Under the pieces are notes generated by a model. The model had not been told where the DNA came from and did no database searches. It was given only the letters and a program-made list of their open reading frames with translations. DNA of 41,418 nucleotides, taken from positions 21,379 through 62,796 of the forward strand of contig JBBTUK010000009.1 of assembly GCA_038063775.1 (NCBI GenBank). The letters run 5' to 3'. Position 1 is the stretch's first letter, and each line of letters begins with the position of its first letter. Of this stretch, positions 6,432 through 25,569 are shown piece by piece. This DNA is from Patescibacteria group bacterium. Lineage in GTDB: Bacteria > Patescibacteriota > Minisyncoccia > Moranbacterales > UBA2206. The translations under genes and the position numbers were made by a program.

Positions 6432-8186
6432 ATGCTTAAAAAAGCAAACATAACGGTGATTCCCCTCTCTTCAAATGGGAGCGCTTTTAATCGTTTACAA
6501 TCGAACCGCAATTATTCCAAAAATAATCTGCGCATTATCCCTCTTGGGGGGCTGGAACAAGTCGGCCGCAATATGACCATCTTTGAATACGGTGCTGACA
6601 TCATCATTGTGGATATGGGACTCCAGTTCCCGGACGAAGACATGCCGGGCATTGATTACCTTATCCCGGACATCACCTATCTGCACGGCAAAGAAAAAAA
6701 TATCCGCGGCGTGCTCATCACCCACGGCCATTACGACCACATCGGAGCCATTCCCCATATTATGGAACGGATTGGCAATCCGCCGATTTATATGACTGAG
6801 CTGACGCGCGGAATCGTCATGAAAAGACAAGACGATTATAAAGACAAGTCGCCGCTCAACATCCATACGGTCAAAAAAATAGATCGTCTGCGGCTCGGCG
6901 CCTTTAACATTGAATTTTTCCATGTCAACCACACCATTCCGGACGCCGTCGGCATCGCCCTCACCACGCCGGTTGGCACCGTCATCCACACCGGTGACTT
7001 CAAGTTTGATCATTCACCGGTTTCCGACGATCCAGCCGATGTCGCCAAAATCGCCCGGCTCGGCAGCGAGAATGTTCTGGCTTTGATGTCGGATTCAACC
7101 GATTCCAAGACTCCCGGCTATTCCCTTTCCGAATCAAAAATCGCCAAGACTTTGGACGAGATATTCGAACGCACGGAAGGTCGACTCATCATCGCCACCT
7201 TCGCCGCGCTCATCAGCCGCATCCAATCGGTCGTGACAGCGGCGGAAAAACACGGACGCAAAGTCGCCGTTGACGGCTATTCTATGCGCACGAATGTCGA
7301 AATCGCCAAAAATCTCGGTTATCTCCAAGCCAGAAAAGGCACCTTGATCCCGATAAACAAGATTGGCGATTATCCGGAAAGCAAAATAGCGATTCTTTGC
7401 ACCGGAGCGCAGGGTGAAGCCAACGCGGTGCTGATGCGCATCATCAACGGTGAACACCGCTTTGTCAAAGTCAAAAAAGGCGACACTTTCATTTTGTCTT
7501 CCTCGGTCATTCCTGGAAACGAAAGAACGGTGCAGTCCATTATGGACACGCTCTACCGGAAAGATGCCAAGGTCATCCATTACAAAATGATGGATGTTCA
7601 CGCCGGCGGACACGCCCGTCAGGAAGATTTGAAAATGATGATCAATTTGATCCGCCCGAAATATCTCATTCCTATCCACGGAAATTATTATATGCTGAAA
7701 CTCCACGGGGAACTCGGCATCTCGGTTGGCTTGGATCCGAAAAACATCCTGATCGGCGAAAACGGACGAGTGATCGAATTTGATTACCGCGGCAACGGGA
7801 AAATCACCGAAGAAAAAGTGCCGACTAATCAAATTATGGTGGACGGCTTGGGGGTGGGCGACATCGGACAAGTGGTCTTGCGCGACCGGCAAGTCTTGGC
7901 CAAAGACGGTATGTTCACCATCATCGTCATCATTGACGGCAAGACCAAAAAGATTATCGGCAAACCTCAAGTCACTTCCCGCGGATTCATCTTTGTCAAG
8001 GAGAACTTTGATCTGGTGAACGCCACCAAGAAAAAAGTGGAAGAGATCATCGCCCAAAAAACTTCGAAAGGGGCAGCGGTCAATTGGGATTATGTGAAAA
8101 ACAACATCCGCGAAACGGTGGGCTCATTCCTCTACCAAAAGACCCAAAGGAGACCCATGATTCTTCCAGTCGTAATAGAAGTATAG
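6432..8186 (+). CDS. rnj: ribonuclease J
   Basis: 584 aa starting LRIIPLGGLEQVGRNMT, with the metallo-beta-lactamase motif ITHGHYDHIG, a beta-CASP region and an RNase J C-terminal domain. Confidence 0.93.
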   Translation: MLKKANITVIPLSSNGSAFNRLQSNRNYSKNNLRIIPLGGLEQVGRNMTIFEYGADIIIVDMGLQFPDEDMPGIDYLIPDITYLHGKEKNIRGVLITHGHYDHIGAIPHIMERIGNPPIYMTELTRGIVMKRQDDYKDKSPLNIHTVKKIDRLRLGAFNIEFFHVNHTIPDAVGIALTTPVGTVIHTGDFKFDHSPVSDDPADVAKIARLGSENVLALMSDSTDSKTPGYSLSESKIAKTLDEIFERTEGRLIIATFAALISRIQSVVTAAEKHGRKVAVDGYSMRTNVEIAKNLGYLQARKGTLIPINKIGDYPESKIAILCTGAQGEANAVLMRIINGEHRFVKVKKGDTFILSSSVIPGNERTVQSIMDTLYRKDAKVIHYKMMDVHAGGHARQEDLKMMINLIRPKYLIPIHGNYYMLKLHGELGISVGLDPKNILIGENGRVIEFDYRGNGKITEEKVPTNQIMVDGLGVGDIGQVVLRDRQVLAKDGMFTIIVIIDGKTKKIIGKPQVTSRGFIFVKENFDLVNATKKKVEEIIAQKTSKGAAVNWDYVKNNIRETVGSFLYQKTQRRPMILPVVIEV

Positions 8187-8258
8187 AAGACCGACTTGCC
8201 CCGTGGTCGCCCCTGGCGACTTTACGGGGTGATCCTGCCCGTTGTGATTGAAGTATAA
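8187..8258 (+). other. in-frame duplicate of the rnj C-terminal tail (KT...VILPVVIEV stop), interrupted by a palindrome
   Basis: Directly after the rnj TAG the frame continues as aag acc ... gtg atc ctg ccc gtt gtg att gaa gta taa. This repeats KT/(M/V)ILPVVIEV from 8139-8186, with wobble differences in most codons. Confidence 0.85.
8199..8229. repeat. 31-bp GC-rich palindrome inside the duplicated rnj tail
   Basis: The sequence ccccgtggtcgcc-cct-ggcgactttacgggg gives 12 paired positions. Its termini CCCCGT...ACGGGG resemble the ends of the larger elements. Confidence 0.75.
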
Positions 8259-8267
8259 AAAAGAATT

Positions 8268-8299
8268 AGAAAATCCCCCGCCAAGGCAGAGGATTTTCT
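8268..8299. terminator. hairpin between the convergent rnj and 8308-9120 genes
   Basis: A 9-bp stem agaaaatcc ... ggattttct, followed by T-rich sequence. Confidence 0.5.
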
Positions 8300-8307
8300 A
8301 TTTGGAT

Positions 8308-9120
8308 TTACTTGCCCAATATTACCACAACATCCGCACTTTGCTGTTCAGCGGTCAGCGCTTCCTTAACTTCGGCCTTTATTTTACCGGCAGCTAAAAT
8401 TTCCTTCAGTGCTTCGGCCGGCTTTTTGAATTGTTCGCCTTTATAATAAACAGTTGCACCGATTACATTTTCTCCTTGCCCGTTGCCCGCCTCAGTTTTG
8501 ACATACCCCTGTCCGGCTAACAAGGTCTTGATTCTGCCGGCGCTGCCCGCCGCCGCTCCCGCGTTCAAAACTTTCACGCCTAGAGCCGCCGGCGCGACTT
8601 CCGCTATTTGATTGTTTTCGATGGTATTTTTTTCTTCGGCAGAATTGTCCGAAGCAGCTTCCTGATTGACCGGAATAACGACCTCGTTTTCCTTTTCACC
8701 GGCCGGATTGGCCGCTGGTTTTTTTAGCCGCCAGAGATATCCGCCACCAATGAGCGCGCCTAGAACAATCAAACTCAAAACTGCGAAAAATATTTTTTTA
8801 CCGAGAGAGGTTTTTCCTTCCACATATTCCAGCTGGCTGTTCGCCGGTTTTTCTTCCTCCGTTTTTTTCCTGCCCAAGCTGGCAATAAAAGTCTCTTGCT
8901 TTTTTATTTTATCCTTGTATATTTCTTCCTTCTTCACCTTTTCAACTTTTATAGTTTTCCTTTCACCGGGAAGCACTATGTCTTCGATTATCCTCTCTCC
9001 TTGATAAAATTCCTTGCTTCCGATTTTTTCCATCGGAACCGGTTCCCAATTTTCTTCAGAGCCTTTTGTTTCTTCGCCCATATTCTCCTTTTTGATATCA
9101 ATATTATTTTTACTTGCCAT
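8308..9120 (-). CDS. membrane-anchored LytR_C (LytR/CpsA/Psr C-terminal) domain protein
   Basis: 270 aa with a K/E-rich N-terminus, one TM helix (IFFAVLSLIVLGALIGGGYLW) and a C-terminal VKVLNAGAAAGSAGRIKTLLAGQGY...ADVVVILGK. It is a paralog of the C-terminal half of the 11282-13465 product. Confidence 0.75.
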   Translation of the reverse strand: MASKNNIDIKKENMGEETKGSEENWEPVPMEKIGSKEFYQGERIIEDIVLPGERKTIKVEKVKKEEIYKDKIKKQETFIASLGRKKTEEEKPANSQLEYVEGKTSLGKKIFFAVLSLIVLGALIGGGYLWRLKKPAANPAGEKENEVVIPVNQEAASDNSAEEKNTIENNQIAEVAPAALGVKVLNAGAAAGSAGRIKTLLAGQGYVKTEAGNGQGENVIGATVYYKGEQFKKPAEALKEILAAGKIKAEVKEALTAEQQSADVVVILGK

Positions 9121-9188
9121 TTTTTTGTTTTAGCTTAATTGCATTCAGTATACAATTTACTGCGCAATTTGCCAAAGCATGTACAAAA

Positions 9189-9257
9189 ATGTTATTTTAT
9201 TTACATCAAAAAACTCAAAGAAGGCTCTTGATACTGCTCGTCGTAATAGAAGTTTAA
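9189..9257 (+). other. third relic copy of the rnj C-terminal tail (MLFYLHQKTQRRLLILLVVIEV stop)
   Basis: Compare rnj ...SFLYQKTQRRPMILPVVIEV stop. The match is 14 of the last 17 residues, with many synonymous DNA differences. It lies between two minus-strand genes. Confidence 0.7.
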
Positions 9258-9269
9258 AAAAATAAATTT

Positions 9270-9299
9270 AAAACCCGCCGCCGAAACGGGGTGGTTTTT
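9270..9299 (-). terminator. intrinsic terminator downstream of 9306-9608
   Basis: On the minus strand, aaaaaccaccccg-tttcggcgg-cgggtttt is followed by a T-rich run. Confidence 0.5.
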
Positions 9300-9305
9300 C
9301 ATCGG

Positions 9306-9608
9306 TCACTTTGACGCTTTAGTTATGACTTTGAGCATCACGTAACCTCCGGAGGCGAAGAAAAAGAGGGCGAAAACCCGGGAAGTATAGAAAATTTGAT
9401 TGGAAAAATCTAGTGAAATAATATTGAAATATTTATTTATTTGGACAAACGAGGCTACTAAGAGAACGAAGCCGCACAAGAAAAAAAATTTAAAAGCGGC
9501 ATCCAGCCCTTTTTCTGTGCGCAATACCAGCTTCACCATGACTACGTTGGCAAAAATGGCTATAGTCAAATTCAACAGATCAAAAAATAACTCAATTTTG
9601 CTCGGCAT
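9306..9608 (-). CDS. small hydrophobic membrane protein (about 3 TM), unknown function
   Basis: A 100-aa ORF co-directional with and closely spaced to the surface locus. I recognise no motif. Confidence 0.5.
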   Translation of the reverse strand: MPSKIELFFDLLNLTIAIFANVVMVKLVLRTEKGLDAAFKFFFLCGFVLLVASFVQINKYFNIISLDFSNQIFYTSRVFALFFFASGGYVMLKVITKASK

Positions 9609-9619
9609 ATATTTTTATT

Positions 9620-10849
9620 TTAATTGCTTATTAAAAATCCTTTTTCCCTCAAAACGTTTTCATCAATCGGCCGGTAAGACAAGAACCTCTTGTATTCCAA
9701 AATGACAATGAATATCATGGCGATGAAAAGCAGAAGTATGAAGGAGATATCAAAAATAACCGTCTTGGAGAATTTTTCCTCCGTTATTACGGTGCCGCCT
9801 ATTTGAATGACCGGCCGGTCAACCGTGTTGAATGTGACGGCTTGGACATATTTGTCCTGTCCGATTTGCGGGACTACTTTTAACAGATATTTTCCGGAAA
9901 TTACTCGGTTTTGCAGGTCAATCCTTTTGAGAAAAGAGCCTCCGTTGTCCAAAAGTATTTTATCTGAAAATTGGGAAATCAGTTTTTCCTCCTCTTTGCT
10001 CAAAGAACTGTTCCACTCATAGGCATACAGGCTGTAGTTTATTTTTGCTTCAGCCGGCGAGCCGCTCCCCAGGGGAGTAAAAATAAGCTGCATATCCAGC
10101 TTATCACCGGGATTGAATTCTTTTTTGTTCAGCAGAACTGCATTGAAAAGATAGGTATTTCCGGCCGTTTTTTCCATAAGTCGGTCCCCCAGATCGTTGT
10201 CGCCCGGTGATTCTTGATAGTATGATTCATTGAGGGATAGATTCGCCGGCCTGCCTATGTTTTTGTCCGCCTCCACGGTAAAATAATATTTCTGTGTGAA
10301 AACATCGCGTTTGCCTGAAATCTCAAAAGGTGAAAAATTATACGCCTCAATTGAATGCTCTCCGTTTTCCAGCGGTTGGCCGTAATTCGTCCAGGTCCAG
10401 TTTCCCCGACTGTCGCTAAAAGTTGATGAAAAAAATCCCTCGGAATGGATTTCCAAAAAAACTTCCGAATTCGGATAGAGAACGGTGCCGGAAAAAAATA
10501 TTATGGGACTTGTCAGACGATTGTTTCTTTTTTGCTTTTCAATTAACTTTTCTCTTTCCGCCTGCGCCGGATCCTGGATCGCGACAATGATTCTGTAATC
10601 TGAATTTTTTAGATCAGCCTCATCCGATTCCTCCTCTTCTTCTTCCGCCGGTTCGGTTTTTTCTATCGGATTAAAAGGCGTTATCTCCTGCCGGAATCTG
10701 ACTGTTTCCGCGGCATAAGCAAAACTAAGATGCTTGCCCAGAATGACATAAAACAAAACGAGGTGAATCAATATCATTGCCAAGAACCCGGATAAGATTA
10801 TGAGTTTTTTGACTGTTTTTTTTTGTTTGAGAAAATCTTTTTTGTCCAT
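9620..10849 (-). CDS. bitopic surface protein with N- and C-terminal TM helices and an Ig-like/beta-sandwich-like ectodomain
   Basis: 409 aa with an acidic linker EPAEEEEEESDE. Its start overlaps the upstream stop (TAATG at 10849), which suggests translational coupling. Confidence 0.6.
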   Translation of the reverse strand: MDKKDFLKQKKTVKKLIILSGFLAMILIHLVLFYVILGKHLSFAYAAETVRFRQEITPFNPIEKTEPAEEEEEESDEADLKNSDYRIIVAIQDPAQAEREKLIEKQKRNNRLTSPIIFFSGTVLYPNSEVFLEIHSEGFFSSTFSDSRGNWTWTNYGQPLENGEHSIEAYNFSPFEISGKRDVFTQKYYFTVEADKNIGRPANLSLNESYYQESPGDNDLGDRLMEKTAGNTYLFNAVLLNKKEFNPGDKLDMQLIFTPLGSGSPAEAKINYSLYAYEWNSSLSKEEEKLISQFSDKILLDNGGSFLKRIDLQNRVISGKYLLKVVPQIGQDKYVQAVTFNTVDRPVIQIGGTVITEEKFSKTVIFDISFILLLFIAMIFIVILEYKRFLSYRPIDENVLREKGFLISN

Positions 10850-11232
10850 TAGGTATAGGTTCTCACTTCTTCGAGAAGCCCGTTATTTTTTACGAAATCA
10901 ATAGTTAAACTTTTTTTGCTCGATATCTCGCCGGCGTTCAAACTGATAATTTTTTGGTAATCGCTGAAAATTTTGTCGCTGGCGCTGATTTCCGTTTTCA
11001 GCTTGGAATCAAAAAACTTTATCATATACTGGCCGTCAGTTTCCGTAATGTTGCTCCAAATATCTTTTATCTCCCTGCCCTGGTCCAGATAAACGAATCT
11101 CACAGGAAGGATGGCTTGGCTGAAATTAATATTTTGGGCTTGCGCTGCTTTAAACGTAAAGAGATTAATAATAAAAGCGGCCAGAACCGTCCCGCTTAAA
11201 ATAAGTTTTCTGCTTTTTAAGTTCACCCGCAT
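10849..11232 (-). CDS. small secreted protein, unknown function
   Basis: 127 aa with a signal-peptide-like N-terminus (LILSGTVLAAFIINLFTFKAAQAQ). Its stop overlaps the next gene's start. Confidence 0.55.
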   Translation of the reverse strand: MRVNLKSRKLILSGTVLAAFIINLFTFKAAQAQNINFSQAILPVRFVYLDQGREIKDIWSNITETDGQYMIKFFDSKLKTEISASDKIFSDYQKIISLNAGEISSKKSLTIDFVKNNGLLEEVRTYT

Positions 11233-11281
11233 TTTCAGCCTAAGGCTGATCCGCCTTGGGCGGATACCTTTTTAATTTTGA

Positions 11282-13465
11282 TTATTTTCCCAGCATTACC
11301 ACGACATCGGCGCTTTTTTGTTCCATGGTGGCCGCTTTCTTAACCAACGCGTCTATCTTTTGTCCGCTGATTACTTCTTTGATAGCTTCCGCCGTTTCTT
11401 TCAAGCTGTCATCCTTATAGTACACTGCCGCTCCCGAATGATCGCTGGCCAGAGCATTTTTGGCCTCTGCCTTAGAATATCCTCCGCTCACGAGAATATC
11501 TTTTATTTTTCCGGCCGCCCCTTCCGATGCTCCGCCATTTAGAACTATGAGGCTGATCTTCGCCTTTGTATCATTATTTCCAAGAGAGGCGTTCTGATCG
11601 GCAGTATTTTTCTCCTCTTCAGCGGCTTGATTTTTATTCGCATCCTCTGAATTATTGCCTATTGAAATGGGAGGAATTTTTTCCTGGATCACAATTTCTT
11701 CTTTTCCGTTTTTTCCCAAGAATGCCACGACTCCCCAGATCGCAATCGCCAAAAAAATTGCTCCCGGAATGATCCAGCCTAGTTTTTTCCAGAGAAAACT
11801 TTTCTCCTCAACTATTTCTTCTTTTTCCTCGGATACTTCCCTCCTGGCCAGCTTCGCGATAAATTCTTCCTTGCTCTTCTTTTTTTGGGCGGGCTCTTCG
11901 CCGGCCGGACCGGTTTTTTCGCCGTAAATTTCCTCTTTTTTCACCGGTTCGGCTTTGATTTTTTTGCCTTCATTTTCTATTTTTTCTTTTTCAATCACTT
12001 TTTGAACTGCTTCTTCAATCGGAGCCTCTTCGGCCGGTAAAATATCCTCTGGTTCTTTTTCTATTAATAAGTTCTCCACTTTTTTCTCCAGCATTGCTTC
12101 GTTAATCGGAGAAACGCCGTCCAGAGGCGGAATCAATATTGTCCGTCCCGTTTCTAAGGAATATGGGGCTTTTAACTTATTAACCTTCACTAAAACTTTC
12201 CAATTAACATTGTTCTGCAGGGCTAACCCCACAACGTCCTCGCCTTTTTGCACGGCATAAGGAACCCAGCCGATGCCGCCGTATTTCTTCTTATGATAAA
12301 GTCTCCAGGCCTCATATGCCGCAAAAGCCAACAAAAACAGAACGGATGCGATGGCCATCTCTCGCCAGGGAATGACCCATATTTTTATTTCGGGTCCGAC
12401 TACCGCCACTTCCTGACCGCCAGCATCTTCGTATTTCATTTCCGTCGCGAAAGAAAAACGGCCGAAACGGGGATTGTGCCAGGAATAGTTGGAAATGAAG
12501 CTGTCTTTTTTCAGCACCTGGAATTTCCGGCTTACATCCTCGCTTCTTTTTCCGAACAGCAAGTCTTTGACATGGATGATATTTTCCTGCTCAATGCTGA
12601 CATTGCCGTCATTTTTGACCGAAGATTGGACCAGATATTCCTGGGGCCTCTTCGGATCACCGAACCAGTCGGCAAAGCTGAACTCCTTGAAATTTTTGAT
12701 AACCTTAAAATCTCCCAGCGTCAGTTTTTTTATGATTTCTCCGGGCACCGTTTCATAGATTCGGACGCCCACCCGGGTCGTCAGTTTTATGGCTGAACCG
12801 GTTTCCGCCTTTTGCGTTTCCGGTTCCACTTTTTGGATTAGGACCCCTCCCGTGTGTTCGCCGACATCAACTTCCTTCGGAACCCTGATAACAAAAGGGA
12901 TGAACAGTTTTTCCTTGGACGCCATTTCTTTTTCCACTGATTCAACGCCGGCGCACCATTTTTCCAGCTCCTGAAATTGCGTTTCTTCGACTTTCGGCTT
13001 TATTTTTACTTTTTTATTTTGAACATCAAATTCGTCCTGAATCTCCTCCCGGCTCAAGCGGCAAACTTCCAATATTTTCTTGTCTTTCCTTTTAAAAAGT
13101 CCCTGGAAAAATTCCGGCAGCGGAGCGGGATAAAAGCTTACCCAGGAACCGACTTCCAGTTTTGGTTCGCTGAATTGCTTCAGGGCGAAACCGCCGCTGG
13201 AGCTCGGCGTCGTATCCGCCGCGTATATCAGAGCTTTCCAGGACTCCGAGAAAAGATTATTCACTTCCAGCAAGTCTTCCTTCGCTTCCCCTGGATTTAA
13301 TTTATAAATGAACCAGGAAGCGCTGTTTTCCACGTTCGGATCCGGATTGGCCGGTTTCCCGCCGAGCATTCCGTATTCAATGGCCCGGGCCTGGTCGGTT
13401 CCGGCCAGCGCGAATAAGGCTGATAGGCACAAAATCGTTAAAAAAACTTTTATTTTTATTTTCAT
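11282..13465 (-). CDS. DUF916/DUF3324-like cell-surface protein fused to LysM and LytR_C domains
   Basis: 727 aa, in order: a signal peptide; SWFIYKLNPGEAKEDLLEVNNL...YAADTTPSSSGGFALKQ (a DUF916-like pattern); TM1 at aa ~369-389 followed by HKKKY; a LysM-like segment YAVQKGEDVVGLALQNNVNWKVLVKVNKLKAPYSLETGRTILIP; an E/K-rich linker; TM2 at aa ~562-584; and LytR_C (ISLIVLNGGASEGAAGKIKDIL...ADVVVMLGK). Confidence 0.7.
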   Translation of the reverse strand: MKIKIKVFLTILCLSALFALAGTDQARAIEYGMLGGKPANPDPNVENSASWFIYKLNPGEAKEDLLEVNNLFSESWKALIYAADTTPSSSGGFALKQFSEPKLEVGSWVSFYPAPLPEFFQGLFKRKDKKILEVCRLSREEIQDEFDVQNKKVKIKPKVEETQFQELEKWCAGVESVEKEMASKEKLFIPFVIRVPKEVDVGEHTGGVLIQKVEPETQKAETGSAIKLTTRVGVRIYETVPGEIIKKLTLGDFKVIKNFKEFSFADWFGDPKRPQEYLVQSSVKNDGNVSIEQENIIHVKDLLFGKRSEDVSRKFQVLKKDSFISNYSWHNPRFGRFSFATEMKYEDAGGQEVAVVGPEIKIWVIPWREMAIASVLFLLAFAAYEAWRLYHKKKYGGIGWVPYAVQKGEDVVGLALQNNVNWKVLVKVNKLKAPYSLETGRTILIPPLDGVSPINEAMLEKKVENLLIEKEPEDILPAEEAPIEEAVQKVIEKEKIENEGKKIKAEPVKKEEIYGEKTGPAGEEPAQKKKSKEEFIAKLARREVSEEKEEIVEEKSFLWKKLGWIIPGAIFLAIAIWGVVAFLGKNGKEEIVIQEKIPPISIGNNSEDANKNQAAEEEKNTADQNASLGNNDTKAKISLIVLNGGASEGAAGKIKDILVSGGYSKAEAKNALASDHSGAAVYYKDDSLKETAEAIKEVISGQKIDALVKKAATMEQKSADVVVMLGK

Positions 13466-13492
13466 CTGTTTTATGTTTTTTTAATTTTCTAA

Positions 13493-13501
13493 ATTATACC
13501 A
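13493..13501 (-). promoter_or_regulatory. extended -10 element TGgTATAAT upstream of 11282-13465
   Basis: The minus strand reads ccggattgTGgTATAATttag, about 28 nt upstream of the ATG. Confidence 0.4.
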
Positions 13502-13520
13502 CAATCCGGCATAATAATAA

Positions 13521-13546
13521 AACTGATACGCTAATGCGTATCAGTT
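13521..13546 (-). terminator. intrinsic terminator after 13573-14223
   Basis: A perfect 11-bp stem aactgatacgc/gcgtatcagtt with loop taat, followed on the minus strand by ttttattatt. Confidence 0.65.
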
Positions 13547-13572
13547 ATTAAAATCAAAGTTTTTCAATTATT

Positions 13573-14223
13573 TTAGGTCGCTGTCAAAGTCATGTTTAAG
13601 GTGTAGCTTCCCGTGGTTTGGGCTCCCGGAATGGTTTGCGACAGGCTGGTGCCGGTCAGATCCCATTGTCCGGGCTTTGGAGCTCCGGCCGCGGCCGTCA
13701 TCAGATCAATGCTACTCACTGATCCTTCCACGAAAGCATCGCTTGTCCCCTTGGAAACATTGGTTGTAGCCGTTCCGCCGACGCCCGCGATGGTTCCCAC
13801 GCTCGGATCAATGGTCATTTGTCCGCCATAAGAATCCGTATCCACTCCATCCCCGGCGCTGGCCGTGGAATCGTTATAATCATAGTAATTTGTTCCATTG
13901 GACCAAGCGGCAGTCGCTCCGCTGGTAGCCGCGATATTGAGCGTCCAGGTATCGGTCGTCCCGCTGGGATTGGTAATGCGCATCCGTTCGCTGGAGGTGC
14001 CTAGCGTGGCCGCCGAGGCTTGATAAGTCATGGAAAAAGCCTTGGAGGGAAAAGCCACGCCAGGGCTAGTTACTGTATTTCCACTAGCGTCTACGATTTG
14101 CACATCCAGAGAGCCGGTTATGGATTGGGAAAATTCGGTCGTGTCGGAAGCTAGTGCCGCCAGAACTCCAGTCAGGACAGAAACCGCAAACACCAGCGAA
14201 ATAACAGTTATTAATTTACGCAT
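13573..14223 (-). CDS. secreted WxL-like module protein (paralog 1)
   Basis: 216 aa with a signal peptide, then GSLDVQIVDASGNTV..., TWTLNIAATSG, ...GQWDLTGTSLSQTIPGAQTTGSYTLNMTLTAT. The layout matches WxL-type surface domains: two W-x-L motifs and a C-terminal aG.Y...tlt segment. Confidence 0.65.
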   Translation of the reverse strand: MRKLITVISLVFAVSVLTGVLAALASDTTEFSQSITGSLDVQIVDASGNTVTSPGVAFPSKAFSMTYQASAATLGTSSERMRITNPSGTTDTWTLNIAATSGATAAWSNGTNYYDYNDSTASAGDGVDTDSYGGQMTIDPSVGTIAGVGGTATTNVSKGTSDAFVEGSVSSIDLMTAAAGAPKPGQWDLTGTSLSQTIPGAQTTGSYTLNMTLTAT

Positions 14224-14258
14224 GTTTGTTTTGTAATAATTAAATCGCCTGATTTTGC

Positions 14259-14930
14259 TTATGAAATAGACAGGACCATAGTTATGGAATAGCTGCCGGC
14301 CGCCTGGGAAGCAGGCAGTTTTTGGGTAATGTTGTCAGCCGCGCCGATGAAATCCCAGCGGCAGGTAGTGGCCGCGCCGGCCGCCGCCGACATGATGTCA
14401 ATGCTATTAGTCGTGCCTTCCACGAAAGAATCGCTAGTTCCCAAGGAAACATTGGTTGTAGCGCATCCGGAAACTCCGGTTATGGAACCCGTACTCGGAT
14501 TGACCGTCATCTGCCCGCCGTAAGAATCAGTGTCCGCTCCGTCCGTGTATCCCGAACCGTCATTGAAATCGTAATAAGCCGTCCCGGTTGTCCACGTGGC
14601 GGTTGTGGCGCTGGCGGCTAAATTAGCCGTCCAGATTGCTGTCGTTGTCGGATTGGAAGCCCGGACTCTTTCGGCCGAAGTGCCGAACTGCCCGGTGGCG
14701 TCCTGGGTGCTAAAACTGAAGGTTTTCGCTCCCAGGGAAATAGCCGGACTGGCTACTGTGGTGCCCGCCGCGTCCACGACATCAACGCTCAAAGAACCGG
14801 CGTTGATCGTCTGATTAAAAGTGGATGAGTTGCTGGCGAAGACTTGTATTCCGACCAAGAATACGAAGATCAGTGCCAGAACAAGCGATTTTTGGCCTAT
14901 TTTAGCCATTTTTCTGATTTTTGTTTTCAT
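14259..14930 (-). CDS. secreted WxL-like module protein (paralog 2)
   Basis: 223 aa: AGSLSVDVVDAAGTTV..., IWTANLAAS, ...CRWDFIGAADNITQKLPASQAAGSYSITMVLSIS. It aligns end to end with 13573-14223. Confidence 0.65.
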   Translation of the reverse strand: MKTKIRKMAKIGQKSLVLALIFVFLVGIQVFASNSSTFNQTINAGSLSVDVVDAAGTTVASPAISLGAKTFSFSTQDATGQFGTSAERVRASNPTTTAIWTANLAASATTATWTTGTAYYDFNDGSGYTDGADTDSYGGQMTVNPSTGSITGVSGCATTNVSLGTSDSFVEGTTNSIDIMSAAAGAATTCRWDFIGAADNITQKLPASQAAGSYSITMVLSIS

Positions 14931-15004
14931 ATTTTTGATGTAATTATTTAAAATTTGCTTTAAACAAAGCTTTTTTCGCTTTTAAGCCACTTCTTAGCTT
15001 TAGC

Positions 15005-15037
15005 AAAACAAAAAATGAATCCTCACCCCGAGAATTC
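15005..15037 (-). terminator. terminator-like hairpin inside the 5' leader of the WxL-like operon (candidate attenuator)
   Basis: The minus strand reads gaattctc-ggggt-gaggattc (8-bp stem) followed by attttttgtttt. It lies about 60 nt downstream of the predicted TSS and about 75 nt upstream of the 14930 ATG. Confidence 0.5.
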
Positions 15038-15102
15038 ACCCTAGATAGCCCCTTTATTGTCGTCTATGTCGTTTTATCCCCTTTTTAAGCTATTGTAATA
15101 CC

Positions 15103-15131
15103 ATTATACACGATATCAAGGATTGTGTCAA
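15103..15131 (-). promoter_or_regulatory. consensus sigma70 promoter TTGACA-N17-TATAAT
   Basis: The minus strand reads TTGACAcaatccttgatatcgtgTATAAT. The TTGA of the -35 box is the left flank repeat of the GIY-YIG element. Confidence 0.7.
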
Positions 15132-15417
15132 CCCCGCACTAACTTTCGTTCAAAGACTTTTTGATTCTTCTTCTTAATTGCGCCCAGGCTTGTCCAAATT
15201 GCTTTATTTGCTTTTCTCTTTCTTTTGCGTCCCACTCGGATAAATACGCTTCATAATACATGAGTTTCCAGATGTGTCCTTTTGTAGAAAAAGAATTTCC
15301 CTCATTGTGGTCAAAAAGTCTTTTCCGCAAGTTACTACTATATCCATAGTATAGCTCCTTGCGCTCATTTCTCAGGACATAAAAATAATGCATACAATAA
15401 CGAAAGTTAGTGCGGGG
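15132..15417 (-). mobile_element. 286-bp element with perfect 19-bp terminal inverted repeats carrying a GIY-YIG ORF, flanked by TCAA/TCAA
   Basis: The inverted repeat ccccgcactaactttcgtt (15132-15150) pairs with aacgaaagttagtgcgggg (15399-15417). The TCAA flanks are at 15128-15131 and 15418-15421. The ORF fills 255 of the 286 bp. Confidence 0.75.
15139..15393 (-). CDS. GIY-YIG nuclease family protein (single catalytic domain, COG2827/UPF0213-like)
   Basis: 84 aa: MHYFYVLRNERKELYYGYSSNLRKRLFDHNEG...YYEAYLSEWDAKEREKQIK, matching the GIY...YIG...R...H/N...E pattern. The stop and last four codons lie inside the inverted repeat. Confidence 0.85.
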   Translation of the reverse strand: MHYFYVLRNERKELYYGYSSNLRKRLFDHNEGNSFSTKGHIWKLMYYEAYLSEWDAKEREKQIKQFGQAWAQLRRRIKKSLNES

Positions 15418-17793
15418 TCAAGTGGCCGTTAGCGTCATACCAATGGAATAGCTGTCCGCTTGTTGCTGGGCCGGTATATCCTGGGTCAGCGCCACGCCCG
15501 TAAAGTCCCAGTAACAGCCAAAGGAGGTGGTGGACGTTAGAAGAGTTACACTGTTGCCCGCGTCAAAATAGGCAGCTGATCCTTTGGATGGTGAGACGGC
15601 GCCGCAACCCCCCTCCGGCGTTATTGTTCCCGCGCTGGGATCCACCCTTAGCCGGCCGTTAGCCGCCGTGTCATTGAAATCATAATTATAGGTTGCGCCT
15701 TGCCAAAGAGTCGAGGCGCCGCCGGTCGCTGCAATCGTAAGGTTCCAGTTTCCATTAGCTGTAGTATTGGTCAATCGAATTTTCTGGCTGGCCACGCCGA
15801 GCGTTCCAGCGGAGGTCTGTCCCACCCAGTCGAACGTTTCGGCGGAAAAAGAAACGGACGGACTGCCCACCGGTGTACCGCCCGAATCCACGATGTCCAC
15901 TGACAGCGTACCCGCAGAAAGCGTGATGGTCCCGGAAGAATAATCATTCACTTGGGAATTCACTCCGTCACTGACCAAGCCGTAGACATAATAGCTGCCC
16001 GCCGACATGCCGGCCGTATCCCAGGAACAAGTCGCTCCCGTGCCTTCGCCCGCCGAGGCGCAAGCACCCGTAATGGCCGTACCGTCCAGACCCGAACCAT
16101 TGGAATCCCAATAAAAGACCGCGTTAACGATGTTGTCAGAATCAGCCAAATCATAAGTGATGTTATACAGAGTGCCGATGGGCACGCTGTCACTCACCCC
16201 ATCCGGCTGGCTGACGGTGAGCGTCGGCCGGGCGTTGATGGTCACCACTCCCGGTGAATAGTCGCTGACTTCAGTGTTGACCGTGTCATTGACATCCCGG
16301 CCGTAAATATAATAAGTGCCGGGCGAGACGCCGGTCGTGTTCCAGGCGCAAGTGCCGCCCGAGGCTTCGCCCTGGTTCTGGCAGGCGGCAATGGAAGTGC
16401 CGTTGAGCCCCGTACCATCCGTGTCGTAATAGAAATCCACGGTAACCGTGCTGTCGGTGTCGGCCAGATTGTAAGTTATGTAATTATAAGTGCCGTCCTG
16501 GGCGATGGTATCACCGGTGCCGTCAGGCTGAGTGACAGTTAAAGTCGGCGCGTCGTTGATCCGGATCCGGCCGGTTGAAACATCAACGACATCCGGATTC
16601 ACTCCGTCATTGGCCACGCCATAAATATAGTAATACGTACTGAGACTCATGCCCTCGCCAAGAGGGCTGAAGGAACATGTTGCGTTGGTTCCCTCAATTT
16701 GGTTTTGACAGCTTGAGATGGCCGTGCCCCCGGCTCCGTTGCCGTCCGTTTCATAGTAAAAATCGGCGGTAGCGGTTCCCGCGTCGGCCAAGTCATATTG
16801 GATCTGGTAATTGCCTCCGTCCGCTACGTCCGTGTCCGAGGCTGGATTATCCACCGTGACGGTCGGCGGAGTATCTGCATAAGGTCTTAAAGCCAAGGTG
16901 ACCGCCGTCCACGAATCGCTTGTGGTGGTCGTGCCCCCACCGGCAAATGCCGCCGGATCATAGGCGCCGGAAGACCAGGTCGTATACCCGGCTCCGACCA
17001 TGCCGTCTTGGGTGTCATTCCCATTTGCCGCGCGGAAATCAGTGAGATATGACGCGGTGTAATTGCCGCCCGTTGAGCCGGATCCGGCGCCGGCTACATA
17101 AATCCACGCTCCGGAGGAAGTGGGCGTAATCGCCCCCGGATTTACAACCCGAGTATTTATCGCTCCGGCAGTGACTGCCGCGACATCAAGGGGCGTGCCT
17201 GCATCAACATTCCGGAACACATGAACAGACCAGGCGCGGCCGCCAGACGCGTCGCCGCCCGCGAGAATCACCGAGGTTTCCGGCGTCCCCGGCATAAACC
17301 GATACGCCACTCGGAGATTTGAGTCGTAAGAGTCGTTCTGATACAGCTCCGACCCGGCCAGTGTGTAGGCCGTTCCCCCACTATTATTGATCGTCAGCGC
17401 CTTGTTGGCTGTGTCCCCATTGGAAAACGCGACAATGACCAGATCGTCGGCCGCTGGCGTTGAAGCACTGCCGTTGGTGAGCGAAAAATTAACCGTCGTG
17501 TTGCCGCTAACACCGGCAGAGCTGCCCACCTGGCCTCCCACATAGGATACTGCCGCCAGAGCGGTGTGAATCCTTAACTTTTCCGGCAAATCCCGGATAG
17601 ACGCGTATTTATCCACGATGTCCGAACCGCTATCTTTTTGCGTAAGCCAAATTCTGTCCACGATTCCCCGGGTGCTGATGTAGGAATCTACCAGGGTCTT
17701 TACGAGATAAAAAGAGGCGTTGGAAAAAACCAGTCCTGTAATTACCAGAAATACTACCAGGAATCTGAATATTTTTCCGCTTCGTTTGCCCAT
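15418..17793 (-). CDS. large membrane-anchored surface protein: N-terminal TM, unknown ~280-aa domain, 3 tandem ~105-aa repeats, C-terminal WxL-like module
   Basis: 791 aa. The C-terminal 164 aa (GTLSVDIVDSGGTPV...NWNLTIAAT...CYWDFTGVALTQDIPAQQQADSYSIGMTLTAT) are paralogous to the two small proteins downstream. The TGA stop lies within the TCAA flank of the GIY-YIG element. Confidence 0.8.
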   Translation of the reverse strand: MGKRSGKIFRFLVVFLVITGLVFSNASFYLVKTLVDSYISTRGIVDRIWLTQKDSGSDIVDKYASIRDLPEKLRIHTALAAVSYVGGQVGSSAGVSGNTTVNFSLTNGSASTPAADDLVIVAFSNGDTANKALTINNSGGTAYTLAGSELYQNDSYDSNLRVAYRFMPGTPETSVILAGGDASGGRAWSVHVFRNVDAGTPLDVAAVTAGAINTRVVNPGAITPTSSGAWIYVAGAGSGSTGGNYTASYLTDFRAANGNDTQDGMVGAGYTTWSSGAYDPAAFAGGGTTTTSDSWTAVTLALRPYADTPPTVTVDNPASDTDVADGGNYQIQYDLADAGTATADFYYETDGNGAGGTAISSCQNQIEGTNATCSFSPLGEGMSLSTYYYIYGVANDGVNPDVVDVSTGRIRINDAPTLTVTQPDGTGDTIAQDGTYNYITYNLADTDSTVTVDFYYDTDGTGLNGTSIAACQNQGEASGGTCAWNTTGVSPGTYYIYGRDVNDTVNTEVSDYSPGVVTINARPTLTVSQPDGVSDSVPIGTLYNITYDLADSDNIVNAVFYWDSNGSGLDGTAITGACASAGEGTGATCSWDTAGMSAGSYYVYGLVSDGVNSQVNDYSSGTITLSAGTLSVDIVDSGGTPVGSPSVSFSAETFDWVGQTSAGTLGVASQKIRLTNTTANGNWNLTIAATGGASTLWQGATYNYDFNDTAANGRLRVDPSAGTITPEGGCGAVSPSKGSAAYFDAGNSVTLLTSTTSFGCYWDFTGVALTQDIPAQQQADSYSIGMTLTAT
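15913..16869 (-). repeat. three in-frame tandem ~315-bp coding repeats (aa ~309-627)
   Basis: The repeat units are PTLTV(T/S)QPDG...Y(N/D)LAD.D....V.FY(Y/W)D..G.G..GT.I..C......G..C.W.T.G...G.YY.YG...D.VN, each with two conserved Cys. Confidence 0.8.
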
Positions 17794-17798
17794 GATGC

Positions 17799-18767
17799 TT
17801 AATTTTCGCTGTAGCCGCTTACATAATTGAAGACTTGTTCGGATATTTTTTTCATCAGGTCTTCCGCCTCTCGTTTGTCCCTCCCGCTTACCATTACGGT
17901 CAAGATGTACGGCCGGTTCGGAGCGTAAATGATGCCCGAATCCATATACACATTTTTGTCCTCGGCGACGCCGATTTTGTGGGCATAGACCGTGCCCTCC
18001 GGCAATCCGCCTTTGAGATATTCGTCAAATCGGGTTTCCGAAAGATAAGCCAGGAGCTTTTGGGAACTCTCCTCTGACAGATATGAAGAATTATAAAGCG
18101 CCCGGAAATTAGCCGAGTATTTTTTCGCCCCGATTTCTCCTCCCGCTGAGAAAAAATCACCGGCTCCGAGATGTTCGTAAACATCGTAGATTTCCCTGGT
18201 TTCCAGATTTCTCACCAGGATAAAGTTGGCCGTGTTGTCGGAATCCACCAAAGCGCGGCGGACCAGATCTTCGATGGTAAAGATCGAGCCAGTCGGCTCC
18301 TTGAAGAGAGTTCCGAAGCTTTCTTCCTTGTCGGCCGCCATCAGAACCAGTTTATTGTCCCATTTCCATTCGCCCTTTTCAATCTTTTTGGCCACCGCCA
18401 TGGCCACCGGCAATTTGAGGAGGCTCGCCGGCCAGAATTGCGCGTCCTTGTTGATGGAGATATTGGCGCCGGTCGGCAAATATTCGAAATAGATAGATAT
18501 ATCTTTTTGGCCTTCGTATTTATTCAGCTCGTCCCGAAGCGGCTGGATGTTTATGATCAGGTCTTTCTGGTTTACTGATTTTCTAGCCGGATTCAGAAGT
18601 TGAAATTTGTCTTCCGTTTCTTCTGTTTGCTTTTTAGAGCCGTCCTTGATCTGGGTAAAATAGAATATTGTGAACAGATTCAAAACAACCAAAACCGCTA
18701 GAGCGGCAATAAAAAACTTTTGGTTATCAAGCTTTTCCGCGATTTTTTTGTTATTTTTTTCTTGCAT
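17799..18767 (-). CDS. class A beta-lactamase-like serine hydrolase, membrane-anchored
   Basis: It carries SxxK (PASLLKLP), SDN (DSDNTANF) and KxG (HKIGV) motifs. I trimmed the start to ATG 18767 (MQEKNNKK) because the ORF-track start at 18854 lies inside the repeat 18832-18907. Confidence 0.7.
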   Translation of the reverse strand: MQEKNNKKIAEKLDNQKFFIAALAVLVVLNLFTIFYFTQIKDGSKKQTEETEDKFQLLNPARKSVNQKDLIINIQPLRDELNKYEGQKDISIYFEYLPTGANISINKDAQFWPASLLKLPVAMAVAKKIEKGEWKWDNKLVLMAADKEESFGTLFKEPTGSIFTIEDLVRRALVDSDNTANFILVRNLETREIYDVYEHLGAGDFFSAGGEIGAKKYSANFRALYNSSYLSEESSQKLLAYLSETRFDEYLKGGLPEGTVYAHKIGVAEDKNVYMDSGIIYAPNRPYILTVMVSGRDKREAEDLMKKISEQVFNYVSGYSEN

Positions 18768-18831
18768 AGTGATGCTTATATTATACAATAATTTGCCAGA
18801 ATAAGCATTTTGATGATAGTTTATATATATG

Positions 18832-18907
18832 CCCGGTAGTGAAATTTTGACCAATTTCCTCCGGGAGGAAATTTTTATATTATTTAAGTCAAAATTCTAC
18901 TACTGGG
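18832..18907 (+). repeat. palindromic MITE-like element, subfamily A (76 bp), flanked by TATG/TATG
   Basis: Arms are cccggtagtgaaattttgac ... gtcaaaattctactactggg, with an internal hairpin aatttcct-ccgg-aggaaatt. The TATG flanks are at 18828-18831 and 18908-18911, and the second contains the trpS ATG. Confidence 0.85.
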
Positions 18908-18908
18908 T

Positions 18909-19919
18909 ATGAAAAGGATTTTTTCCGGCATTCAGCCGTCAGGCAACTTGCACCTGGGCAATTACCTTGGGGCCATCAAAAACTGGGTCAAGCTTCAAAA
19001 CGAGTATGACTCTATTTTTTGCGTGGTGGATCTCCACGCCATTACTGTTCCGCAAGATCCGGAGGAACTCAAGAAAAAAATCATCGAAGTGGCCAAAATA
19101 TATTTGGCCGCCGGCATAGACCCCAAAAAATCGGCGATTTTCATCCAATCGCATGTCCCCGAACACGCGGAGTTGGCGTGGATTTTGAATACTTTGGCCA
19201 AGATTTCCGAAATGGAACGAATGACCCAATTCAAGGATAAATCGGCCAAGAATAAAGAGGGCGTTGGTATGGGACTGTTCGATTACCCAGTGCTGATGGC
19301 CGCCGATATTCTTCTTTACGATACGCAAGTCGTCCCGGTCGGCGAAGACCAGCTGCAACACATTGAAATAACCAGGACATTGGCCAAAAGATTTAATACT
19401 CGTTTCGGCGAAACATTTGTGATTCCCAAAGCTTATTATATGGAAAATGAAGGAATGCTTGCCCGCCAAAGCCTTGGCGTCGGCGGGAGGATTATGGGAC
19501 TGGATGATCCAGCTAAAAAAATGAGCAAGTCGGCCGAGTCGGAATACAATTACATCGCCCTTACGGATTCCGAAGAAGCGGTGCGCAGAAAAATCAAAAA
19601 GGCCGTGACTGACTCCGGAACCGAAATAAAATATGCTGATGATAAACCGGCACTTAAGAATTTGATAAATATCTATTCTCTCTTGTCCGACAAAAAACCG
19701 CAGGAAATTGAAAAATTATATAAAGACAAAGGATACTCTGAATTTAAAACTGACTTAGCTGAAGTAATTATAAATTTCCTGAAACCTTTTCAGGAAAAAT
19801 ATAACGCTCTCTCGGACGAAGAAGTTCTAAAAATCCTCCGGGAAGGCGCGGAAAAAGTTCGTCCGCTGGCTAATAAAAAACTGGAAGAAGTAAAAAATAA
19901 AGTTGGATTTATTTTGTAA
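18909..19919 (+). CDS. trpS: tryptophan--tRNA ligase
   Basis: 336 aa: IFSGIQPSGNLHLGNYLGA (HIGH region) and KMSKS (KKMSKSAES). Confidence 0.93.
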   Translation: MKRIFSGIQPSGNLHLGNYLGAIKNWVKLQNEYDSIFCVVDLHAITVPQDPEELKKKIIEVAKIYLAAGIDPKKSAIFIQSHVPEHAELAWILNTLAKISEMERMTQFKDKSAKNKEGVGMGLFDYPVLMAADILLYDTQVVPVGEDQLQHIEITRTLAKRFNTRFGETFVIPKAYYMENEGMLARQSLGVGGRIMGLDDPAKKMSKSAESEYNYIALTDSEEAVRRKIKKAVTDSGTEIKYADDKPALKNLINIYSLLSDKKPQEIEKLYKDKGYSEFKTDLAEVIINFLKPFQEKYNALSDEEVLKILREGAEKVRPLANKKLEEVKNKVGFIL

Positions 19920-22553: not shown

Positions 22554-22579
22554 TGATTGAATTTAAGATTTAAACTTGA

Positions 22580-22652
22580 CCCCGTAGTAGATTTTCGGCT
22601 TTTATTTTTTTCAGCCCCGCCGCGGCGGGGCGACCGAAAATTCACTACGGGG
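22580..22652 (-). repeat. palindromic MITE-like element, subfamily B (73 bp), flanked by TTGA/TTGA
   Basis: Arms are ccccgtagtagattttcggc ... accgaaaattcactacgggg, with an internal hairpin gccccgc-cgcg-gcggggc. It is approximately the reverse complement of 2554-2625. Confidence 0.85.
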
Positions 22653-22681
22653 TTGACTTCCGCTAAATAGTCTGCTAAACT
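22653..22681 (+). promoter_or_regulatory. candidate promoter TTGACT-N17-TAAACT
   Basis: The -35 box begins with the right-hand TTGA flank of the element. It points into the structured region 22688-22830. Confidence 0.55.
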
Positions 22682-25540: not shown

Positions 25541-25569
25541 ATTATACACTATTTTCACCCTCAAGTCAA
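25541..25569 (-). promoter_or_regulatory. near-consensus promoter TTGACT-N17-TATAAT
   Basis: The minus strand reads TTGACTtgagggtgaaaatagtgTATAAT. The TTGA of the -35 box is the flank repeat of element 25570-25704. Confidence 0.65.

Follow-up and report, generated by a model that had tools for sequence, protein, structure and literature searches.

Relic 3' ends and a mobile palindrome behind the RNase J gene of a Candidatus Moranbacteria genome: a probable case of gene-end displacement

Introduction

Displacement of gene 3' ends has been proposed for Rhs, CdiA and type VI secretion system (T6SS) effector loci, where it would proceed via homology-facilitated illegitimate recombination (Jackson et al. 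2009; Kirchberger et al. 2017, PMC5361080). In such arrays, repeated events stack orphan ends, and the composite arrays are spread by ordinary homologous recombination (PMC5361080). Here, we describe a comparable arrangement behind rnj, the gene encoding RNase J, in a stretch of 41,418 nucleotides from Candidatus Moranbacteria (Patescibacteria), which is referred to below as the window. The working end of the gene (tail1) is followed by a palindrome and a second copy of the last codons (tail2), and further downstream by a third copy (tail3). As in the Rhs, CdiA and T6SS loci, a conserved gene body would act as the anchor, an incoming allele would supply a new 3' end, and the old end would be orphaned downstream. 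However, the displaced tips of those systems are variable toxin domains with immunity genes, the diversity of which is selected, whereas the rnj tip encodes the same nine residues of a housekeeping ribonuclease and thus no functional exchange would be achieved. The rnj relic is also distinct in its length of 27-51 nt and in that a mobile palindrome, conserved across lineages, lies in the junction.

Integrases that target the 3' ends of genes carry a replacement end in attP and leave attL/attR duplications behind, as is the case for tRNA-gene islands and for ICESt1/ICESt3 and the cis-mobilizable elements (CIMEs) at fda; tandem accretion in these systems gives several copies, and tiny cis-mobilizable remnants can persist. 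The rnj locus is similar in that direct repeats of the gene's 3' end flank inserted DNA and in that the working copy may be borne by an element, and in one related locus (L120; loci of the comparison set are given as L numbers) 42-nt repeats around a toxin-antitoxin cassette resemble an att duplication. On the other hand, no integrase was found near rnj in ~150 loci by a crude motif screen, only ~45 nt separate tail1 from tail2, and the tails of the window share at most eight identical bases in a row, so that, unlike att repeats, they have no common core.

With repetitive extragenic palindromic (REP) sequences, transposable elements of the miniature inverted-repeat kind (MITEs) and Rickettsia palindromic elements (RPEs), the palindromes at this locus have in common that they are short, scattered hairpin repeats with conserved feet and variable interiors. 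RPEs are reported to lie in frame inside protein genes (Ogata et al. 2000), and one copy of the present family likewise lies in frame in an essential gene, ychF. Unlike in those families, copies are found here at the same position of relic ends in several lineages (the rnj tail and the D-loop of tRNA-Leu); to our knowledge, such same-position occupation of relic gene ends is not a described property of REP sequences or RPEs.

A last group of described systems acts during translation, by bypassing (phage T4 gene 60) or by termination-reinitiation or shunting across a hairpin. The rnj locus resembles bypassing in having a stop codon, a stable hairpin nearby, a matching Val codon at the far foot of the hairpin and, downstream, a coding signature that is independent of frame. 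It departs from it in that the hairpin lies 10-13 nt past the stop instead of at the take-off codon, in that tail2 is broken in four of nine lineages, and in that the likeness consists of sequence signatures. Gene-end displacement at recombination anchors and small palindromic repeats are therefore already known as such; what is new is their occurrence at a housekeeping ribonuclease in an uncultured lineage of the candidate phyla radiation (CPR), the exact return of the layout in several species, and the association of palindromes with orphaned ends.

Results and discussion

Three ends of rnj in the window

The 120 bases that close the gene and follow it (8139-8258) are best read as the outcome of a 3'-end displacement by anchor-mediated recombination, in which the old ends would persist as untranslated relics, and we give this reading a probability of roughly 0.55. 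The Pfam record for the exact RNase J protein lists Lactamase_B, RNase_J_b_CASP and RNase_J_C. Its terminus at 8139-8186 reads KTQRRPMILPVVIEV-TAG (tail1), and the bases from 8187 to 8258, in the same frame as rnj, encode KTDLPRGRPWRLYGVILPVVIEV-TAA, the copy that contains tail2. On re-reading 8139-8258, the account of these sequences given in the initial annotation was found to be right: the ILPVVIEV codons of tail1 and tail2 differ at six of the eight wobble positions and at no other position, and an imperfect 31-nt palindrome, CCCCGT-GGTCGCC-CCT-GGCGACT-TT-ACGGGG, is present at 8199-8229. In the minimum free energy fold of 8130-8310 the palindrome forms a stable hairpin (fold z = -3.4). No Rfam family matches the palindrome region, and a known RNA family was rejected for the bases around 8251-8327 as well, since the weak matches there (Brucella sRNA 120 and the rimP leader) lie far under the gathering scores.

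The count of two copies given in that annotation was incomplete, as a third one, tail3, is found at 9207-9257, with a terminator of its own. It is 77% identical to tail1 over 53 nt and has three non-synonymous changes (P>L, M>L and P>L). The tail2 and tail3 regions align through the stop codon, an A-run and a hairpin, and because each of the two tails is followed by an A-run and a terminator-like hairpin, each looks like a complete former 3' end of rnj. The longest run identical between tail1 and tail2 is GAAGTATA. Chance is ruled far out for the nine-residue identity after the stop: when ~1.4 million 17-residue windows over the window and roughly 80 genome loci were scored for tail likeness, high scores were obtained only for true rnj tails and relics.

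A shared layout with unrelated hairpin interiors

The comparison was based on ~160 related rnj loci from genomes and metagenomes. A canonical tail of the RRPM[VI]LP[VI][VI]IEV type closes every rnj whose 3' end lies on its contig; L064, where rnj is truncated, was left out of this count. Besides the window, eight lineages carry the same layout behind it, namely L013 (also L108 and L109), L015, L021, L083, L084, L094, L160 and L186, the last with the layout partly deleted. This layout consists of the stop codon, 1-4 variable bases, the flank CC(G/A)AC(T/C)TG, a hairpin with CCCCG/CGGGG feet, GTG, a second tail and TAA. The spacer between stop and flank reads AGA, CAGA, GCGA, A, AAA, G or T in the other lineages and AAAA in L186, and in L083 the stop is separated from the hairpin by 45 nt. 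The KT that begins the second copy, which had initially been counted as part of the match, is complete in the window and only there, as elsewhere the variable bases stand before CCGACTTG.

Three unrelated hairpin interiors were distinguished: type A (window, L160, L094, L013, L015 and L083), type B (L084), which is a perfect 24-nt palindrome, and type C (L021). Although the interiors of L084 and L021 are unrelated, their CCCCG/CGGGG feet are the same. Across the six type-A copies, 91% of the cells are paired, with two pairs altered on both sides. A search of viral contigs for the flank and the hairpin feet gave 20 matches, all of them in GC-rich coding DNA unrelated to rnj and approximately the number expected by chance.

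The frame of tail2 relative to rnj is incidental, being kept in only two of the eight readable lineages (window and L160). For this reason, the description of the two tails as a tandem in-frame duplication was abandoned; they appear to be juxtaposed allelic gene ends, and their relative frame carries no signal. Since the frame is kept only in the window and L160 and the length of the spacer varies, read-through of the stop codon is not a conserved property either, and a read-through product, which had been proposed as a target for proteomics, is unlikely to be found. The hairpin of L015 contains TGATGA. An open reading frame (ORF) running from the conserved TTG through the hairpin into tail2 was also considered and rejected, since only the window, L160 and L015 keep it in frame.

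Coding pattern and decay of tail2

In five of the eight readable lineages (window, L084, L160, L021 and L015) tail2 is intact. Among these five, no second position varies in the nine codons, wobble positions are saturated, and replacements are limited to exchanges between V and I; the comparison of tail1 with tail2 inside each genome gives the same pattern, again with no second-position change. The tail2 sequences also carry the peptide variants of their host clade: position 2 is occupied by I in the window and L084, as is position 6 in L015. The other lineages form a decay series, from a single nonsense codon in L094 and a 2-nt insertion in L013 to a heavily decayed tail with an extra 36-nt insert in L083 and the deletion of the hairpin and half of the tail in L186; tail3 of the window belongs to the decayed copies as well. 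The GTG and TAA of tail2 are invariant except in L083 (ATG) and L186 (GTG region deleted, TAG stop).

The argument that a plain non-coding relic would not keep the peptide while its synonymous sites are saturated, first made from the window alone, is thus borne out by the five lineages, and the lack of second-position changes next to saturated wobble positions indicates that tail2 is not a relic that has been free-running since a single old duplication. The initial annotation had offered two explanations as an either/or, a tail2 that was coding until recently or the import of one copy from a diverged allele, possibly along with an element; the comparative data, among them the comparison with the L183 tail below, fit both halves.

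Ancestry of the two tails

The closest relative found, L183/L184, has an rnj of 88% nucleotide identity with a single tail and no palindrome, and downstream of rnj it has a LytR_C gene and then trpS, as in the window and L084. Over the last 69 nt of rnj, the window and L183 are only 72.5% identical (19 differences in 69 positions), in comparison with 88.8% upstream (171 in 1531; Fisher p = 3.6e-4). At the codon level, 18 of the last 23 rnj codons differ versus one of the 12 codons before them. In all close comparisons, per-30-nt profiles place the most diverged part of rnj in its last 30-60 nt. Of 24 positions, the working tail of L183 has 4 that differ from tail2 of the window and 8 that differ from tail1, and tail2 of L084 differs from it at one of 24, the span of such tail comparisons being 24-27 nt only. 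Judged by these alignments, the last 60-69 nt of rnj, including tail1, are of other ancestry than the rest of the gene.

Two tail haplotypes can be told apart. The first has Leu CTT and mostly TAG, and comprises tail1 of the window, L083, L084 and L186 as well as the single tails of L185 and L187; the single tail of L188, with Leu CTC, is close to it. The second has Leu TTG/CTG, mostly Pro CCC, and TAA, and comprises tail2 of the window and L084 and the single tails of L183 and L189. Both are old within the clade of the window, and both are used as working single tails in sister lineages. Within the wider clade, the TAG stop is tied to the palindrome layout (8/9 alleles versus 8/34 without it, p = 6e-4). 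The simplest reading is that tail2 is the former working end of this lineage and that the present end, with its stop codon, comes from a diverged allele. Nearest-neighbour tail distances over all lineages were dropped, because synonymous sites are saturated (mean 7.2 of 24) and such distances are powerless beyond the window's own clade.

A separate observation concerns the rnj of L160 and L158, which is a mosaic: the last ~115 residues are 85-89% identical to those of the window and the remainder 18-75%, which suggests an exchange of the C-terminal domain between distant lineages.

The rnj-trpS spacer and other displaced ends

The distance between rnj and trpS amounts to ~0.1 kb in L191, 0.2 kb in L015, 0.5 kb in L105, ~1 kb in L084 and L183, and 10.7 kb in the window. 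In L084 and L183 a LytR_C gene comes next after rnj and is followed by trpS. Among 80 genome loci, the PGI-rnj arrangement upstream is kept in many, and downstream of rnj none has anything in common with the window except for a LytR_C homologue in L005. Between L015 and L105, rnj is identical up to ~230 nt before the stop and ~6% divergent from there on, and the sequences after the stop are unrelated until trpS. The rnj-trpS spacer is hypervariable, and the locus is a hot spot of recombination.

Tail3 begins at exactly the site that the trpS start codon occupies in L084. A homologous promoter region precedes it, and the joint lies in an A-run (between ACAT and CAAAA), which is consistent with illegitimate joining at short microhomology. 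A promoter-like site, TTGCCA-18-TATTTT, lies at 9169-9198 in copy A of this region, and a second copy (B) lies upstream of trpS in the window itself. Based on the position of tail3 and the duplicated promoter region, we take 9207-18742 to be another rnj-trpS spacer allele, placed behind the first one, with tail3 as the piece of rnj that arrived at its left end. Genes of the second spacer were not found directly 3' of rnj in any of the ~160 loci; L190 alone has LytR_C and Beta-lactamase2 there.

Further displaced ends fit the same picture. In L120 (1172-2203), a cassette of ~950 bp with DUF6922 and AbiEii (type IV toxin-antitoxin) lies between 42-nt repeats of the rnj end (QRRPMVLPVVIEV-stop), the direct repeats being 38-42 nt long and 97% identical. 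In L063 (5655-7047), from a distant Patescibacteria lineage whose rnj is 59% identical to that of the window, an ORF of 445 aa with no Pfam match lies between rnj and a relic tail (KKTQRRLMILPLVVEV-stop). The starts of the relics cluster at 42-57 nt before the stop. The second tails of L043, L132 and L138 were rejected as displaced ends and assigned to a full second rnj paralogue, which in L132 and L138 is putative.

Some other features of these regions were recorded. L043 (4001-7592) has two full-length rnj paralogues in tandem with ~49% mutual identity, and in L132 and L138 a second canonical rnj tail ~1.8-1.9 kb downstream would be consistent with a paralogue arrangement. L078 has a candidate second tail of marginal score beside a GC-rich hairpin directly 3' of the stop. 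Heptamer-like repeats (CACGCAA, GAACGTCA and CGCGAAAC) lie directly 3' of the rnj stop in many lineages free of the layout (L011, L113, L115, L118, L027, L099, L105 and L120), and a palindromic element of ~120 nt is found in L183 (4440-4570), within the 413 nt that separate rnj from the LytR_C gene.

A mobile palindrome family

The ends of the rnj palindrome had been noted to look like those of mobile palindromes, and copies of such a family are indeed found in the window genome and in relatives, within ychF, at the termini of MITE-like elements and in relics of tRNA-Leu. The motif CTTGCCCCGT…ACGGGGT occurs at two sites of the window (8195-8230 and 22047-22095), and CTTG-CCCCGT is common to the rnj palindrome, the start of the ychF palindrome and the larger MITE-like elements, which have CCCCGTAGT termini and occupy six sites in the window. 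Further family copies are present in L131, L134, L040, L124, L033, L036 and L049. At orthologous sites, presence and absence were observed both for ychF alleles and for the rnj layouts (hairpin in the window, deleted in L186, none in L183). A flanking repeat comparable to the TTGA/TCAA of the larger elements or to the 9-nt near repeat of ychF was not found at the rnj palindrome, nor was a cognate transposase found in the window.

The palindrome of ychF (gene at 21422..22510) lies in frame at 22047-22095, between the 9-nt near repeats GTTTATAAT and GTTTATTAT. YchF alleles without the insert have 348 aa and those with it 362 aa, the peptide NACPVKSDEVGAELFNGVYY being kept in several lineages; in P0163, YchF has an extra insert of 15 aa in the hairpin loop. 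As the ychF insert is in frame and its peptide kept, members of the family can be fixed and translated.

In another rnj clade, one or more relic 5' pieces of tRNA-Leu(CAG), from a diverged allele, lie upstream of the intact tRNA. These relics are split at the D-loop (between GTGAAA and TTGGCAGA) and again after GGCAGA by CCCCR…YGGGGCA(A)G palindromes, and in L134 the unit of relic and palindrome is tandemly repeated. The TTGCCCCG…CGGGG matches near tRNA-Leu are palindromes within the relic 5' copies and not within the intact tRNA. Thus, an orphaned end together with a palindrome marks both borders of a conserved block, namely the 3' end of rnj and the 5' end of tRNA-Leu, and the pairing is not peculiar to rnj.

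Table 1. Coordinates of the features discussed (positions in the window unless a locus is named)
Feature	Position	Strand	Remarks
rnj (RNase J), working gene	6432..8186	+	584 aa; ORF list
Last 69 nt of rnj (VGSFLYQKTQRRPMILPVVIEV-TAG), includes tail1	8118..8186	+	Ancestry unlike that of the remaining gene (versus L183)
Junction spacer AAGA	8187..8190	+	1-4 nt, varies between lineages
Conserved flank CCGACTTG	8191..8198	+	Near-invariant in 8-9 lineages
Palindrome CCCCGTGGTCGCC-CCT-GGCGACTTTACGGGG, type A hairpin	8199..8229	+	Member of the mobile palindrome family
tail2, GTG ATC CTG CCC GTT GTG ATT GAA GTA TAA (VILPVVIEV*)	8229..8258	+	Putative displaced former end
Terminator-like hairpin 3' of tail2, 15 pairs	8267..8300	.	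Bidirectional, shared with the convergent LytR_C gene
LytR_C-domain gene, putative first spacer allele, between tail2 and tail3	8308..9120	-	Pfam LytR_C 1.2e-8
Divergent promoter region, copy A	9121..9206	+	Shares homology with copy B and with the L084 trpS promoter region
tail3, QKTQRRLLILLVVIEV-TAA, decayed third rnj end	9207..9257	+	Within ORF 9114..9257
Terminator-like hairpin 3' of tail3	9274..9295	+	
Eight minus-strand genes of the putative second spacer allele	9258..18742	-	ORFs, Pfam for some
Divergent promoter region, copy B, upstream of trpS	18743..18830	+	Alignment
MITE-like element, 87 nt, at the trpS start codon (18909)	18829-18915		
trpS, conserved right-hand anchor	18909..19919	+	Pfam tRNA-synt_1b 1.6e-80
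MITE-like elements, termini CCCCGTAGTAGATTTTCGGC	~1180-1273, 2550-2630, 22571-22659, 25563-25713, 39540-39694		TTGA/TCAA flanks
tRNA-Leu relic copies	L134 1040-1242; L131 1100-1235; L040 3565-3700; L124 1010-1150; L036 3700-3790; L033 3760-3815		

Proposed displacement of the rnj end and the alternatives

According to the displacement proposed here, the rnj-trpS spacer of this Moranbacteria group would often be exchanged by recombination anchored in both conserved genes. A diverged rnj end would have recombined in, with the left crossover within the conserved NNIRET-coding stretch, and the incoming end would comprise the last 60-70 nt, with tail1 and its TAG, and the palindrome-bearing junction behind it. 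The right join would have been imprecise, the former working end (tail2, TAA, A-run and terminator) being displaced downstream instead of replaced and left as a relic. A similar one-sided event, homologous at its trpS anchor and illegitimate at the opposite joint, would have brought the second spacer allele, whose left edge keeps the last 51 nt of its own rnj (tail3). The palindrome would be a copy of the small mobile family (CTTG-CCCCR…YGGGG) that stands in place of the QRRPM codons of the relic. What we infer is the resemblance of the joining to homology-facilitated illegitimate recombination, the order in which the palindrome arrived and the end was displaced, and the lack of translation of tail2.

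Several observations weigh against this scenario. Near-invariance is seen for CCGACTTGCCCCG (13 nt), for the hairpin feet and for GGGGTG in lineages where the synonymous sites of the adjacent tails are saturated; as a neutral relic junction should decay, the conserved flank and feet imply that the palindrome module is either mobile or selected. The right junction, between CGGGG and TG, is base-identical in all lineages, which independent illegitimate joins would not give. The intactness of tail2 in five of the eight readable lineages requires that displacements were recent and repeated, or that tail2 was renewed by crossovers in recipient tails, as could happen when the module enters a new host and the right-hand crossover falls in the recipient's own tail. 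For L015, the resemblance to the single tail of the near-identical L105 is shown by tail1 rather than tail2; an exchange of the entire spacer, layout included, would explain this. The clustering of the relic starts looks more site-specific than random illegitimate joining, although it may instead reflect the instability of long repeats. Finally, comparisons over 24-27 nt have low statistical power.

Most of these difficulties would be removed if a miniature, non-autonomous, site-specific element homed into the end of rnj and brought a replacement tail, TAG, CCGACTTG and the hairpin. The host tail would then turn into tail2 and the gene would survive, flank and hairpin being the sites on which a recombinase or transposase would act in trans. 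Such an element would explain why flank and feet are conserved around variable interiors (A, B and C) with a base-identical right junction, why tail2 is intact, which speaks against a neutral displacement, and why TAG is linked to the layout. It fits a native tail2 in the clade of the window and left breakpoints that, relative to L183, fall at similar places in the window and L083 (~-60/-69). The relic starts, clustered 42-57 nt ahead of the stop, and the L120 cassette with its 42-nt repeats suit it as well. However, no integrase-type motif (HxLRH or serine recombinase) was found by the crude motif screen in 307 ORFs up to 3.6 kb downstream in ~150 loci, no transposase or recombinase was identified by Pfam among the 17 window ORFs and the one L063 ORF scanned, and viral contigs lack the pattern beyond chance matches. 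Furthermore, tail1 copies are as mutually diverged as any tails, the breakpoint between L015 and L105 lies at ~-230 and not at -69, and the palindromes also occur in ychF and tRNA-Leu relics and hence are not specific to rnj. We consider such an element possible, at odds well below even.

If the palindrome was instead first inserted in frame into the working tail, in the manner of RPEs, the resulting end (KT-DLPRGRPWRLYG-VILPVVIEV) would have been tolerated and long in use, and would have been retired later by canonical tails gained upstream through recombination. In the window and L160 the sequence is in frame and free of stops, and several of the differences within the type A hairpin are synonymous in that frame (TTG/CTG, CGC/CGT, TAC/TAT and GGG/GGA); moreover, the sister palindrome is translated and kept as a peptide within YchF in many lineages. 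An rnj allele ending solely in the palindrome tail, for which the initial annotation had left room, was not encountered on reading ~160 loci and 31 near homologues, and a query with the hypothetical palindrome tail (60 aa) returned only four short canonical fragments, in a search made weak by its word index. In L084 (B), L021 (C), L094 and L013 the hairpins are out of frame, and in L084 and L021 tail2 is intact nevertheless. Independent rescues with the same junction would also be needed. We consider an in-frame origin of the palindrome tail unlikely.

Expression of tail2 at present, with ribosomes re-initiating at or hopping to the invariant GUG at the foot of the hairpin after the rnj stop, would give either fM-ILPVVIEV, whose nine residues are those of the RNase J C-terminus, or an RNase J with a second ILPVVIEV strand, flank and hairpin being the recoding signal. 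The pattern of no second-position change with saturated wobble positions is of the coding type, the GTG and TAA are invariant save in L083 and L186, and compensatory changes accompany the conservation of flank and hairpin. The geometry would also suit, with a stop, ~10-13 nt, a stable hairpin and a start or landing codon, Val being both the last sense codon and the landing codon, and the frame relative to rnj is irrelevant to re-initiation or hopping. In addition, the peptide co-varies with tail1 of the same genome. Nevertheless, tail2 is broken or deleted in four of the nine lineages that keep the flank (L083, L094, L013 and L186), in a series resembling that of a pseudogene, the GUG lacks Shine-Dalgarno spacing, the hairpin of L083 lies 45 nt from the stop, and a device of this kind is without precedent. 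The likeness to the working tail of L183 is more simply due to displacement. We therefore regard continued expression as highly improbable. The proposal that stop, flank, hairpin, GUG and tail2 together form a working recoding device, yielding a free nonapeptide that equals the C-terminal strand of the enzyme or an RNase J isoform with a doubled strand, would explain the conservation across species of flank, hairpin, GUG, peptide and TAA while frame and spacer vary, and its chance is very small.

The tails could also have arisen in situ, by a tandem duplication of the last 48 nt through slippage at AAAAGA, with the palindrome inserted after the second copy had diverged. AAAAGA is common to CAAAAGACC, with which the unit opens, and TAAAAAAGA, which follows the stop, and the copies abut without a spacer in the window. 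But the copies would have been identical at birth, and yet all seven differences within the tail (ATG/GTG and six of the eight wobble positions) are synonymous or conservative, with no change of the kind that a free-running relic should accumulate. The segment with tail1 is of different ancestry from the rest of the gene, and the L183 tail is closer to tail2 than to tail1, so that slippage can hardly account for the locus.

A diversity-generating retroelement was rejected, as the differences (T/C, T/G, A/C, C/T, A/G and A/T, at wobble positions) are not confined to adenines; no reverse transcriptase was found among the scanned ORFs. The concern that the assembly had merged two strain variants is answered by three assemblies from different samples and pipelines, the window, L001 (ENA, Hainich groundwater, 8.8 kb, 4 single nucleotide polymorphisms versus the window) and L002 (Logan assembly, different run), which match to the base at the junction of tail1 and tail2; with the same layout in eight further lineages and no shared k-mer at the junction on which two variants could merge, an artefact has a negligible probability. 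One of the four polymorphisms, at window position 8240 (3758 in L001), lies in tail2 and is synonymous in its reading (CCC/CCT).

If the rnj end was indeed displaced, the locus would be a natural record of DNA exchange in CPR bacteria that resist culture and manipulation, with conserved genes as anchors, spacers swapped or stacked between them, and orphaned ends as datable scars. Across whole genomes, scars of this sort could serve to locate hot spots of recombination and to establish the order of events in lineages that have not been cultured. For Moranbacteria, the locus further records a small-palindrome family, copies of which are translated in YchF and repeatedly occupy relic gene ends. 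The more valuable lead is the module of ~45 nt formed by flank and hairpin, together with a nine-codon tail that is conserved amid saturated silent sites, as it would amount to a new kind of mobile or translational device if either the replacement-end element or the recoding signal were true.

Other repeats in the window

Two further repeats were noted away from rnj. Two paralogous genes on the minus strand (13573..14223 and 14259..14930) account for a 202-nt repeat of 72% identity (13651-13852 and 14343-14544). A tandem repeat, (CTGTAAC)n, at 26726-26774 lies just 5' of the start codon of recA (25711..26715, minus strand).

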